Shown: one piece after another, positions 59,853 to 63,619 of the stretch
Layout: each line of letters starts with the position of its first letter
Numbering within the stretch: position 1 is the stretch's first letter
The notes under the pieces: generated by a model
The model's input: only the letters and a program-made list of their open reading frames with translations
Database searches by the model: none
What the model was told of the DNA's origin: nothing
NCBI GenBank assembly: GCA_013285465.1
Contig: CP053449.1
Span: 192,870-256,869 of the forward strand
DNA length: 64,000 nucleotides
Origin: Pseudomonadota bacterium
Lineage (GTDB): Bacteria > Pseudomonadota > Alphaproteobacteria > Micavibrionales > CSBR16-224
Direction of reading: 5' to 3'
Program-made: the position numbers and the translations under genes

Positions 59853-60698
59853 ATGAAACAAAAGCCCCTTTTCTCGGTCAAACCCAAATTTATCCCCAAA
59901 GTCGTGATGATGCAGTCGCTGTTTTACGGCTTCTTTGGTGCATTATTCTTAACGGTTATCGGTGGTCTGCTGCTGTCGCTTTTGACAATGATGCTGGGGT
60001 TTCTTGGTAAAATTGCGATCGGAAATATTTTCTGGGGATGTTTCCTGCTCGGGATTATCGGTATTCCGATTCTTTATTACGAGATCCGGCGTAAAAATGC
60101 CGCCGCAACGCGGTTTGATTTCTTTGAGGACCGTTTAAGCTTTTCCTATTTTTCCGGCCGCTTTCTAAACAGAAAGCAAGGCAGGCTTTATTACCGGGAT
60201 ATTGTGGATGTTGTACAAAATACCAGCTTTTTGCAGGGGCTTGGCAATCTGAAAACAATTGAACTGCATGCGCCAGCCTCAGCCTATTATGAGCCGGGGC
60301 AGAAATTTGTCGGTATCGCGATTGAAGATGTGCCGATGGGGACCGGCATTGCCGAGAAAATTCTGGATGTTTTGGATAAAGTACATGCCGAATACCGCGA
60401 TGCATGGGCGGCTGATATGCAGCGCAGTGCATTGGCGGAGGCGCGCGCCGCGGAAGATGCCGCATCTCCGGCGGAAGAAGAGGTGGCGGAGGCGGAAGCG
60501 TCTGAAGACACCGCGGATCTGCTGCGGGCGCAGCCTGTGATTCCGCCGTCATCCGTTCCGTCCCGTGATACGCAAGAAGATGCGGCGTTGGAAAGTGCCG
60601 GCGAAAATGAGCCGGAGGATAATGCGGAGGAGGAACCGCAAGAGCTGGAACCCGCCATTTCCGATGAAAGACCGCATCATTCCGGAAAAGATAAGTGA
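59853..60698 (+). CDS. membrane protein with a bacterial PH (bPH_2/YdbS-like) domain and an acidic tail
   Basis: Two N-terminal TM helices, YYRDIVDVVQNTSFLQGLGNLKTIEL, then an A/E/D-rich C-terminus. Confidence 0.6.
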   Translation: MKQKPLFSVKPKFIPKVVMMQSLFYGFFGALFLTVIGGLLLSLLTMMLGFLGKIAIGNIFWGCFLLGIIGIPILYYEIRRKNAAATRFDFFEDRLSFSYFSGRFLNRKQGRLYYRDIVDVVQNTSFLQGLGNLKTIELHAPASAYYEPGQKFVGIAIEDVPMGTGIAEKILDVLDKVHAEYRDAWAADMQRSALAEARAAEDAASPAEEEVAEAEASEDTADLLRAQPVIPPSSVPSRDTQEDAALESAGENEPEDNAEEEPQELEPAISDERPHHSGKDK

Positions 60699-61243
60699 CG
60701 GAAACAGCCCCAGATAACAAGCCGTTATTCAGGCTGCGCTCCGTTTTCCATCCGGCGGTGGTGGCGTATTCTTATCCGATCCGTATCATTGGTATTTCCT
60801 GTATTTTATTGATGCTGCTGCCTGAAATGGCTAAAGGCATGGCCTGGGTGACGGGCGTTGAAGGATTTTTATCTTACCTGATGGCGATTTCGATTGTCGG
60901 GCTGATCGGTTTTGCCGGTCCGCTGTTTATGACATGGCTGGATTATAAGGCTGTGGCCTTCACCGTTTACCCCAACCGCATTGAATTCATCCAGAGCTTC
61001 TGGATCAGGGAGCAATCACGCGTGTTGCTGCACAGTGTGCGCGAAATAAAGCCCTCGGCAAACTGGCTGCAGAAACGTTACGGTATCGGGAATATTTCGC
61101 TGGTTGTGGAATCGCGTATCGGCGCCAAACAAATGGGCACGGTTCTGCCGAATATCCGTTATCCTGAAAAAGTTGCGGCAAAATTATCAACGGTTCTTGA
61201 AGACCATAAAAGACGGCAACAAGAGCAACAGCAGCAACAGTAA
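60695..61243 (+). CDS. membrane protein with a bPH_2 domain (YdbT/YdbS-like)
   Basis: TM helices, then YPNRIEFIQSFWIREQSRVLLHSVREIKPSANWLQKRYGIGNISL. ATGA-type overlap with the upstream paralogue. Confidence 0.6.
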   Translation: MTETAPDNKPLFRLRSVFHPAVVAYSYPIRIIGISCILLMLLPEMAKGMAWVTGVEGFLSYLMAISIVGLIGFAGPLFMTWLDYKAVAFTVYPNRIEFIQSFWIREQSRVLLHSVREIKPSANWLQKRYGIGNISLVVESRIGAKQMGTVLPNIRYPEKVAAKLSTVLEDHKRRQQEQQQQQ

Positions 61244-61259
61244 AACCGCGTTGTCAATC

Positions 61260-61583
61260 TTAGAACTGGAAATCAAGATCGGGCGGCAGGCCGAGATCTT
61301 CCATGATTTTTGCCGTTTCTTCAGAGATTGCCTGTTCAGCCTTTTTGCGCGCATCATTGATGGCGGCAACAATCAGATCTTCCAGAACCTCGATATCATC
61401 GGGGTTGACGATACCCGGCTCCAGTTTCAGCGCACGGACTTCTCCGCGGCCGGTGATTGTAATATTGACCATACCGGCACCGGCTTCGCCAATAATTTCT
61501 CTTTCATTGGCGCGCTTTTGCATCTCCGCCATTTTTTCTTTCATGACTTGTGCTTTTTGCATCATTTGGGCGAGATTTGTCAT
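61260..61583 (-). CDS. ybaB: YbaB/EbfC-family nucleoid-associated protein
   Basis: 107 aa. MTNLAQMMQKAQVMKEKMAEMQ...GAGMVNITITGRGEV. Downstream of dnaX, as usual. Confidence 0.9.
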   Translation of the reverse strand: MTNLAQMMQKAQVMKEKMAEMQKRANEREIIGEAGAGMVNITITGRGEVRALKLEPGIVNPDDIEVLEDLIVAAINDARKKAEQAISEETAKIMEDLGLPPDLDFQF

Positions 61584-61607: not shown

Positions 61608-63391
61608 CTAATTCTGTTTGGCAATATCCCGGATCGTCGAAAGGCGCGCTCCGGGGAACCGTGCCAGCACATCTTTCACAATAGGATGATTGGCGGCATT
61701 TGCAAGCTTTTGTTGCTGTGCCTCCCTGTCTTCATCGGCCAGCGTTTTCATCTCCGCCGTTTTCCTGTTTTCGGGAACAAGCGAGATAATCCAGTTTGTT
61801 TTCGTCCAGTCTGACAGATGCTTTTTAATCGTGCCGGGGGCGCTGCTATCCCCTGCCGGATCAAGCCAGATATCTATTTTTCCGGCGGCAAAGCTGACGG
61901 GAACCATAAAATTATAAAGCTGGCTGTAAAGCAGCATCTCCTGTTTTTCCCGGAACATTTCGGCGATATCGCGAAAGCTTTGCGGCGCGGTGAGCGTGTC
62001 GGGATCCTGTGCCGGAAGCGCGGGGATATCTGCCGGCATCTGCGCCTGCGCTGCGGCATGTGTTGCGGCAGTGGAAGAAGGAGGGGGCGTTCTGACAGGC
62101 GGCGGTGCCGAAACGGAGGATTCTTTCGGGTTTAGGCTTGTTTCAGGCTTTTTTTTTGCGTCGCGGCATCGTCACTGCCGCTGTTTTCCAGCGCCGTAAT
62201 AATCTCCGACGGCAGCGGCATTTGCGCGGCGTAAATTGTGCGGATTAACACCATATCCAGCGCCTGTGCAGGCGTGGCGGCGGTTTTTAGCTCCTCCCGC
62301 CCTTTGGACAGGATTTGCCACAGCCGTGATAATGCCGGAACGGATAATGTATCCGCCAGCGCCAGTCCGCGCGTTTTTTCCGTTTCCGGCAAAAAGCCCG
62401 TTTTCAAGCTTTCCGGCACAAGCTTGCCCTTACTGACAAGATGCACGGCGTCCAGCAGGTCTTTTAGAATCTGGTCGGGGTCGGCGCCGGAGGTGAAGAG
62501 TTTTTCGGCGATTGCGAAACTGTTTTCGGCATTGCCTTCGCTGAGTGCCGTCAGCAGATCGAAAATCATATTGCGGTCGGACAGGCCAAGCATGTCACGC
62601 ACCAGCGCCGCTGTGATTTTACCGTCAGACAGCGCAATGGCGCGGTCAAGCAGGCTGAGCCCGTCACGGGCGGAGCCGTCCGCGGCGCGGGCAATCATAT
62701 GCACGGCTTCGTCTTCGGCCTCGATTTTTTCCCTGCCCAGCAGCTCCGTGAAATAGTCATTGAGCAAATTGCTGTCGATACGCGGCAGGTCAAAACGCTG
62801 GCAACGCGAGAGAATAGTGACGGGAACTTTGTTGATCTCGGTCGTGGCAAAGATGAATTTGACATGCGGCGGCGGTTCTTCCAGCGTTTTCAAAAGCGCA
62901 TTGAAAGCCGATTTTGACAGCATGTGGATTTCATCAATGATGAAGATTTTAAAACGTGCCGAAGCCGGGGCATATTGCACGGAATCGATAATATCGCGCA
63001 CATCATCGACACCGGTACGCGAGGCCGCATCCATTTCCAGCACGTCGACATGGCGGCCTTCCATGATGGCTTTGCAATGTGTGCATTCTCCGCAGGGTTC
63101 TGCCGTGATGCCGCTTTTTTCATCCTTGCCGATACAATTCAGTGCAAGGGCGATAATTCGTGCCGTTGTGGTTTTACCGACACCGCGGACGCCTGTCAGA
63201 ATAAAGGCATGGGCGATGCGGTTCATGGCGATCGCGTTTTGCAGGGTGCGGACCAGAGCATCCTGTCCGATCAGCTCGGAAAAATTACGGGGACGGTATT
63301 TCCGTGCCAGCACCAGATAGGGCGTATCCGGTTTGCCGTCCGTATTGGCGGCGCTTTCCTGTTTGCTCTCTGTTTTTTCAGGCTGGGACAT
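61608..63391 (-). CDS. dnaX: DNA polymerase III subunits gamma/tau. The 0-frame product stops at 62132 (419 aa); full-length tau (594 aa) needs a -1 shift at an A9 run.
   Basis: N-terminal ORF (62132..63391): clamp-loader ATPase GVRGVGKTT, zinc module CGECTHC, FIIDEIHML, SRCQRF. C-terminal ORF (61608..62039): tau-specific tail. The -1 frame is open all the way from the A9 run to ORF2 (KPETSLNPKESSVSAPPPVRTPPPSSTAATHAAAQAQM). Confidence 0.9.
62149..62157 (-). other. A9 homopolymer (T9 on the + strand) at the dnaX gamma/tau junction: candidate recoding/slippage site or homopolymer error
   Basis: mRNA sense ACG CAA AAA AAA AGC CUG AAA CAA GCC UAA. Counted directly: T at 62149-62157. Confidence 0.8.
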
Positions 63392-63420
63392 GATTAAAAT
63401 TTTACATTAAAAAGTAAAAA

Positions 63421-63521
63421 GGTGGAAGGCCGAGCAACGACCCAGCACAACCCATATGCGGCTGCTTCCTTTCGGATCTGACCGGGTTAACGGGACAGCT
63501 GCCCATTGTCAACCTTCCACC
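63421..63521 (-). ncRNA. ffs: signal recognition particle RNA (small/4.5S type)
   Basis: The minus strand contains CCGGTCAGATCCGAAAGGAAGCAGCCGCA, matching the conserved domain IV GGUCAG.UCCG.AAGGAAGCAGCC. The terminal helix GGTGGAAGG / CCTTCCACC closes a ~100-nt hairpin. Sits upstream of dnaX. Confidence 0.85.
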
Positions 63522-63619
63522 CCGTAATATGAGGGGATTCGGCGCGAAAGGCAAGGAAAACACATGGGAATCCTGCGGAAAATGCCGTGAAAAGCCGTAG
63601 ATAAGGGCAAAGCCTGTCT

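Follow-up and report, generated by a model that had tools for sequence, protein, structure and literature searches.

The 64,000-nucleotide stretch of DNA considered here (the window; positions 192,870 to 256,869 of contig CP053449.1, assembly GCA_013285465.1) comes from an uncultured marine lineage of the alphaproteobacterial order Micavibrionales, and its minus strand carries a dnaX gene that is divided between two reading frames at a run of nine adenines. The first open reading frame (ORF1, 62132..63391) opens at the ATG at 63391, encodes 419 amino acids in the zero frame and terminates ...GCG ACG CAA AAA AAA AGC CTG AAA CAA GCC TAA. Pfam identifies it as DnaX, with matches to DNA_pol3_delta2, DNAX_ATPase_lid and DNA_pol3_gamma3, the last over its full length (profile positions 1-142 of 143; residues 259-400 of the 419). 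ORF1 therefore corresponds to a gamma-like product comprising domains I-III, and the same ORF supplies the N-terminal 414 residues of tau. The A9 run, the putative recoding site, occupies 62149..62157 (T9 on the plus strand) and is read as CAA AAA AAA AGC in the zero frame. The zero-frame stop (TAA, 62132..62134) follows five codons past the run, giving a gamma terminus of ...TQKKSLKQA, and a +1-frame stop (the TGA of GCC TGA, 62143..62145) lies directly 3' of it. The -1 frame is open. Starting from the G of the Lys-415 codon it reads (K)PETSLNPKESSVSAPPPVRTPPP... and continues for 179 codons to a stop that ends at 61608 (61608..62148, likewise on the minus strand), encoding a linker rich in proline, alanine and serine followed by the tau-specific C-terminal domain. 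This domain (61632..61985, minus strand) matches DUF3646 (PF12362, "DNA polymerase III gamma and tau subunits C terminal"), the alphaproteobacterial form of the tau C-terminus, at residues 55-172 of the 179-residue -1-frame translation and over the whole profile (1-114 of 114; E 3.3e-26). Relative to ORF1 the tau C-terminal part is offset by 2 mod 3.

When one A is added to the run, the gene translates to 594 amino acids without a stop, and the predicted junction peptide of tau is ...TQKKKPETSLNPK / ...TQKKKPETSL.... Removal of one A gives CAA AAA AAA GCC TGA, which encodes a 415-residue variant ending ...TQKKA, one codon past the run. The 2.67-Mb genome contains no second dnaX. A preliminary description of this DNA had held that dnaX is split at the A9 run, that the -1 frame is open into the ORF ending at 61608 and that the two parts together make 594 amino acids; re-reading of the sequence and the Pfam matches agree with it on each of these points. 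Judged by its coding content, dnaX is here a truly split, two-frame gene, to be annotated as one recoded gene predicted to give both gamma and tau. Annotation pipelines would instead call it a truncated dnaX followed by a hypothetical DUF3646 protein, or a pseudogene.

We looked for relatives of the split gene using the 143-residue downstream ORF together with a length filter that passes short proteins only. This recovered five further clusters of stand-alone DUF3646 ORFs with 77-89% amino acid identity, on contigs from five different sequencing runs or assemblies. In all five lineages the zero-frame stop comes five codons past the run and the C-terminal domain is again offset by 2 mod 3; their sites read CA9GCCTGAAACARGCCTGA or CA10CCTGAAACAAGCCTGA. 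In the two lineages with A10 the longer run results from a G-to-A substitution, not from an insertion or deletion, and leaves the out-of-frame relation unchanged. Run length in relatives, a point raised in the preliminary description, is thus A9 within the genus or A10 by substitution in two lineages, and the two parts are out of frame in all of them. Every relative within the genus has its zero-frame stop, as TAA or TGA, in an unchanged position, and every one of them keeps the CCTGA context. Selection was assessed in six genus-level lineages (pairwise dS, the synonymous divergence, of 0.67-0.96) by calculating Nei-Gojobori ratios of non-synonymous to synonymous divergence (dN/dS) over the whole -1-frame stretch. 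In all six, no stop interrupts the -1 frame between the run and its end (168-185 codons), and dN/dS is 0.13-0.29. The linker, rich in proline and alanine, has acquired several indels among these lineages, every one a multiple of three, and the first residues past the run (PETSL or PETGL) are conserved. The called start codon of the downstream ORF varies, giving products of 143, 144, 140 and 116 residues. Since the -1 frame is uninterrupted from the run itself, tolerates indels in multiples of three only, retains the PETSL motif, lacks a conserved start and shows a dN/dS of 0.13-0.29, we interpret it as the recoded continuation of ORF1. Purifying selection appears to act on the -1 frame from a point immediately at the run, which supports the recoding interpretation and, with it, the earlier proposal that unshifted decoding ends in a gamma-sized product, tau depending on either one extra A or a -1 slip. 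This pattern of conservation is not one that a decaying pseudogene or a separately initiated polypeptide would be expected to yield.

The A9 run is reproducible across independent data. An identical 419-residue product is recorded on six contigs, and A9 is also present in a Logan contig of run DRR538840 and in a Tara Oceans scaffold, the latter with one single-nucleotide polymorphism downstream. A metagenome-assembled genome (MAG M3014) from a second species of the same genus (93% amino acid identity) reads GCA CAA AAA AAA AGC CTG AAA CAA GCC TAA, close to a contig end. We also carried out a census of all 290 long homopolymers in the 2.67-Mb genome (A/T of at least 8, G/C of at least 7), in which the dnaX run alone splits one protein family over two frames. 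Thirteen other candidate split genes were inspected and set aside as adjacent genes (murD/ftsW, an ABC ATPase and permease, pyrH/frr and others) or as non-coding frames. The longest homopolymers of the genome, T13 (685637-685649), C11 (54410-54420) and C11 (1737610-1737620) of contig G000:C1, are all outside the window, and the C11 at 54410 falls within an open frame of 237 codons. A/T runs of at least 9 number 30 in this genome, and runs of A9-10 are found at the homologous boundary between domain III and the linker in at least 11 related lineages. The rarity of such runs and their recurrence at this boundary imply that the placement of the A9 in dnaX is beyond chance.

An order-wide search covered 320 species genomes, in which dnaX, among the matches listed, was mostly a single ORF, matched once over residues ~20-588; 41 regions were then inspected directly. 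In these regions a long A-run at the boundary between domain III and the linker recurs in three families and in both polarities. The tau part is out of frame, in the -1 frame, in the genus of the window (A9 or A10), in a member of another genus of the same family (G007, GTT AAA AAA AAA CTC TAA) and in a member of another family (G011, TCT AAA AAA AAA CTC TAG). The G007-type site is identical in an NCBI MAG, an ENA scaffold and a Logan contig, and the G011-type site is also found in a relative of 85% amino acid identity in six Logan runs. The opposite state, with both parts in one frame, is seen in G003, from the same genus as G007, which reads CAA AAA AAA ACT CTA AAT AAT; here A8 would lead to CTC TAA and A10 to AAC TCT AAA TAA. 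G017 is likewise in frame (GAA AAA AAA AAG CCT AGC GTA), and in the deletion frame, the only one examined for this genome, A9 would lead to AGC CTA GCG TAA. In-frame runs are also present in G023 (A10), G016 (A9) and the rumen MAG RUG10838 (A10), each with stops in both alternative frames, and in G040 (A10), where a stop was seen in the deletion frame but not, over the stretch read, in the insertion frame. In G003, G023, G016 and RUG10838, whose in-frame runs are A9 or A10, the alternative-frame stops occur within 1-5 codons, as they do in the dnaX of Thermus thermophilus, whose arrangement these genes share. Because the boundary run recurs in both polarities among relatives, the gene in the window can be regarded as one state of a shared slippery site. 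By this comparison of sequences the out-of-frame A9 is not a quirk of one genome, the putative slippery site being shared by three families of the order in both polarities. Short-read MAGs of the window's family, L002 (G001:C227), L003 (G002:C296) and L013 (G004:C91), have contigs that end inside the dnaX linker, in the case of G001 about 20 nucleotides or less from the A-run site. These breaks are perhaps due to strain variation in the proline- and alanine-rich linker, and the C-terminal ORF is then missing or located on another contig.

With regard to the level at which the frame changes, in the RNA or on the ribosome, and the ratio of gamma to tau that results, we infer that slippage by RNA polymerase is probably the main route to tau. 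In this model the T9 template would be transcribed into mixed mRNAs by programmed transcriptional realignment. The faithful A9 mRNA would give the 419-residue gamma-like clamp-loader subunit with domains I-III, an A8 mRNA would give the 415-residue variant that stops one codon past the run, and an A10 mRNA would bring the downstream 179 codons into frame to produce the 594-residue tau with its DUF3646 C-terminus. A -1 slip of tRNA-Lys on A_AAA_AAA would give an identical protein, and may contribute. In E. coli the C-terminal part of tau couples the clamp loader to the polymerase. Slippage is favoured, firstly, because the run is 9-10 long in every lineage with the site, although a run of 7 would do for a ribosomal shift, a heptamer being sufficient for tRNA re-pairing. 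Secondly, stops are kept in both non-tau frames, which matters only if deletion and insertion mRNAs are both made. Thirdly, the A/T runs of this genome drop steeply in number at length 9. Up to length 8, A/T homopolymers become about 4-fold fewer per added base (4.2-fold from A7 to A8 and 4.9-fold from T7 to T8), but the number of A-runs falls 10.6-fold from A8 to A9 (117 to 11) and that of T-runs 7.3-fold over the same step (110 to 15). Homopolymer depletion has been used to find the length at which slippage becomes costly (Baranov et al. 2005, PMC1088944), and the depletion of A/T runs of at least 9 observed here is consistent with selection against slippage-prone lengths.

The alternative that survives best is that tau is made mainly through a programmed -1 ribosomal frameshift at A_AAA_AAA, whereby the mRNA would be a faithful A9 copy, the tRNA-Lys in the P and A sites would re-pair one base back and a fraction of ribosomes would enter the tau frame. 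The heptamer is indeed in phase in CAA AAA AAA AGC, the genome has a single tRNA-Lys(UUU), as does E. coli, so that a -1 ribosomal shift is mechanistically possible, and the product would be indistinguishable from that of slippage. These features weigh against transcriptional slippage, as does the fact that known slippage rates come from the RNA polymerases of E. coli and Thermus and not from the host lineage; it also seems costly for tau, which is normally essential, to depend on a minority mRNA unless slippage is very efficient. The codon phase of the run cannot separate the two levels, since any A9 holds an in-phase A_AAA_AAA. Ribosomal frameshifting has been considered for some dnaX genes of reversed polarity, for example that of Chlorobium phaeobacteroides (Atkins et al. 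2016, PMC5009743). At the site in the window, however, no Shine-Dalgarno-like motif is present in the upstream sequence GACGATGCCGCGACGC, and no 3' stem-loop stimulator was detected, as the 69-80 nucleotides downstream of the run fold no better than shuffled sequences (z of -0.34 and -1.18 for the window and -0.36 for G007). The 80 nucleotides 5' of the run in the window also fold no better than shuffles. A small hairpin (CGGCA-N7-UGCCG) 6 nucleotides upstream of the run was considered and dropped, as it is not conserved in MAG M3014. The lack of a Shine-Dalgarno-like element and of significant 3' structure favours slippage, as does the report that in E. coli shifting is far less frequent on A_AAA_AAA than on A_AAA_AAG (PMC5009743). 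A ribosomal shift, moreover, needs neither a run of 9-10 in every lineage nor stops in both alternative frames of the in-frame relatives. On balance we regard a predominantly ribosomal mechanism as unlikely.

A split gene without any recoding would require that ORF1 is the only clamp-loader DnaX and that the DUF3646 polypeptide is made from an internal start, for example the ATG at 62039. Gene callers do annotate a separate ORF of 116-144 residues in every relative, but as described above its called start differs from one relative to another, and the -1 frame is free of stops from the first codon past the run onwards, through a fast-evolving linker whose indels all preserve the frame, with PETSL at the junction. 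No ribosome-binding site is apparent by eye before 62039 (a visual check, with no scan run), and other relatives encode the same parts as a single protein of 560-600 residues. We consider a separately initiated polypeptide very unlikely.

The distribution of polarities bears on how such a gene could evolve. One explanation, which on present evidence could equally be right or wrong, is that RNA polymerase slips on the dnaX A-run so efficiently that the frame of the tau domain became near-neutral, and that the polarity flipped several times, even within a genus (G003 versus G007) and within a family (G017 and G023 versus G011), each state being stably kept in the assemblies sampled. If true, this would be the first alphaproteobacterial gamma made by decoding instead of proteolysis, and the order would provide a natural series in which the constraint placed on gene architecture by slippage efficiency could be measured. 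The same differences between close relatives (G003 versus G007; G017 versus G011), and the hypermutability in DNA of homopolymers this long, could be taken to indicate phase variation at the DNA level, with replication slippage maintaining a mixture of A9 and A10 in the population and tau made in A10 cells only. Against this, the independent assemblies of each lineage agree on the out-of-frame length (at least three for the species of the window, six for the G011 type and three for the G007 type), and the tau-less "off" state would be lethal, and hence not a phase, because the polymerase is linked through tau alone and the genome has a single dnaX. Phase variation accordingly strikes us as scarcely credible. 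The weakest alternative, which the preliminary description had named as the trivial one, is a homopolymer-length error in sequencing or assembly that conceals a true A10 and a single ORF: although the in-frame relative G017 carries A10 in the same AAAGCCT context and the nanopore MAGs L034, L035, L043 and L077 of our comparison set do have spurious dnaX frameshifts, error is effectively excluded because independent assemblies (the genome, the Tara Oceans scaffold, the Logan contig and MAG M3014) agree and the frame is conserved across species-level divergence, diverged lineages, including those whose run a substitution has lengthened to A10, retaining the offset, and homopolymers break no further gene of the genome. 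Those four assemblies (MFD long-read MAGs) have the N- and C-terminal portions of dnaX in separate frames without an A-run in the vicinity, probably as a result of assembly indels, and their error-type frameshifts contrast with the conserved A-run case.

Two-ORF dnaX genes in which tau needs recoding have been described in the Chlorobi, Bacteroidetes and Verrucomicrobia (Antonov et al. 2013, NAR 41:6514, PMC3711429; GeneTack cluster COF_239165634). In its account of dnaX, that study gives 17 genes from 12 genera, all with a -1 shift at the DNA level; 12 of the 17 have a poly-A tract (nine A10 and one each of A9, A8 and A7). The two-ORF genes with poly-A were read by its authors as transcriptional realignment, a precedent for the slippage favoured here. 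Its Fig. S3 includes Chlorobium, Prosthecochloris, Pelodictyon, Flavobacterium, Cytophaga, Capnocytophaga and Coraliomargarita, aligned with the Thermus sequence GAG A9 GCCTGA. The finding was restated by Sharma et al. 2014 and by Atkins et al. 2016 (PMC5009743), the latter also discussing the role reversal of the dnaX products. Our locus resembles these genes in having a gamma-sized ORF1 (domains I-III) that ends near the boundary between domain III and the linker, the tau part in the -1 frame, a poly-A tract (7-10) at the junction with a zero-frame stop just after it, and conservation of both the position and the direction of the frameshift (in eight genus-level sequences and two other genera). 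It differs in its alphaproteobacterial host and DUF3646-type C-terminus, in the predominance of A9 and not A10, and in that sister species show either polarity, as confirmed at the population level. None of the ten aligned taxa and three further species named by Antonov et al. 2013, which together account for 12 of the 17 genes identified there, is an alphaproteobacterium (PMC3711429), and our literature search found no paper linking dnaX recoding with Micavibrio-like bacteria or alphaproteobacteria. The inverted polarity noted in the preliminary description is therefore real as the reverse of that in E. coli, and also in Thermus, but it is not unprecedented, having been described by Antonov et al. 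2013 in other phyla. The layout being already known, what is modestly new is the alphaproteobacterial setting and the fact that sister species differ in polarity, both states being confirmed by independent assemblies. Closely related species of opposite polarity illustrate the prediction of Atkins et al. 2016 (PMC5009743) that a one-nucleotide change can swap the "standard" product if recoding is near 50%.

The dnaX gene of Thermus thermophilus provides the closest comparison. Larsen et al. 2000 (PNAS 97:1683) reportedly found that slippage by RNA polymerase on this gene generates mRNAs in all three frames, so that gamma and tau arise from one gene. As in the window, the Thermus run is an A9 followed by GCCTGA, in the same context at the gamma/tau boundary, as aligned in Fig. 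S3 of Antonov et al. 2013 (PMC3711429). The DNA frame in Thermus, however, is that of tau, and slipped mRNAs yield gamma (PMC1088944), whereas in the window the DNA frame is that of gamma, stopping after 419 residues, and the mRNA with one additional A would yield tau. The Thermus polarity is that of the in-frame relatives G003, G017, G023, G016 and G040. The E. coli gene also gives gamma and tau from one gene by means of a slippery site of lysine codons, at the boundary of domains III and IV. This site, A_AAA_AAG, is accompanied by a Shine-Dalgarno element and by a stem-loop on its 3' side, whereas that of the window is A_AAA_AAA followed by AGC with neither stimulator detected. The polarity is opposite, the shifted product being the shorter gamma in E. 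coli and the longer tau in the window, and unlike the ribosomal shift of E. coli the mechanism here is probably transcriptional. Caulobacter crescentus DnaX, which is alphaproteobacterial and likewise occurs in two forms, is encoded by a single ORF, and its short form is post-translational, whereas the short form in the window would be the default translation product. The Caulobacter C-terminus is presumably also of the DUF3646 type, going by the Pfam family description. The gamma of Caulobacter crescentus is produced by proteolysis of tau (cited in PMC5009743), and as this is the only case studied in the Alphaproteobacteria, the locus described here would extend to this class the architecture in which tau needs recoding. 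In Shigella flexneri mxiE, overlapping ORFs are similarly joined in the mRNA by a non-templated base in a homopolymer, transcriptional slippage being required for the longer product (cited in PMC1088944), but this is an unrelated gene, encoding a regulator, and the run is one of U residues.

The genes flanking dnaX are in the usual order, ffs-dnaX-ybaB. A small signal recognition particle (SRP) RNA gene (63421..63518, minus strand; Rfam RF00169, bit score 49, gathering threshold 40, E 7e-9) is located directly upstream, and represents genomic context and not a recoding signal; it is overlapped by spurious entries of the ORF list at 63402-63563. On the other side, 24 nucleotides downstream of the end of tau, is a ybaB/ebfC-like gene (61260..61583, minus strand), which is present in the ORF list and whose counterpart next to dnaX is called as PF02575 YbaB_DNA_bd. 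Convergent with ybaB is an ORF of 182 residues (60695-61243, plus strand) with a poly-Q tail (...RRQQEQQQQQ); the neighbour at this position in relatives has a weak bPH_2 match.

Long A-runs in dnaX were also encountered in more distant taxa. In the dnaX of MAGs assigned to Arcobacteraceae, Campylobacteraceae and Sulfurovum (L082, L093 and L099), the N-terminal match ends at query residues 313-326, and an in-frame A10 (or A9) lies about 200 codons beyond that point. L093 has a stop shortly after its run in each alternative frame; its site reads, for instance, tcA AAA AAA AAA gtt tta act, and A9 would lead to ttt taa. The gammaproteobacterial MAG L069 (UBA6940) has an in-frame A10 (or A9) about 20 codons past the N-terminal match, and loss of one A would bring an immediate stop. 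To judge from such runs, dnaX slippage sites of the Thermus type may be more widespread than the literature lists.

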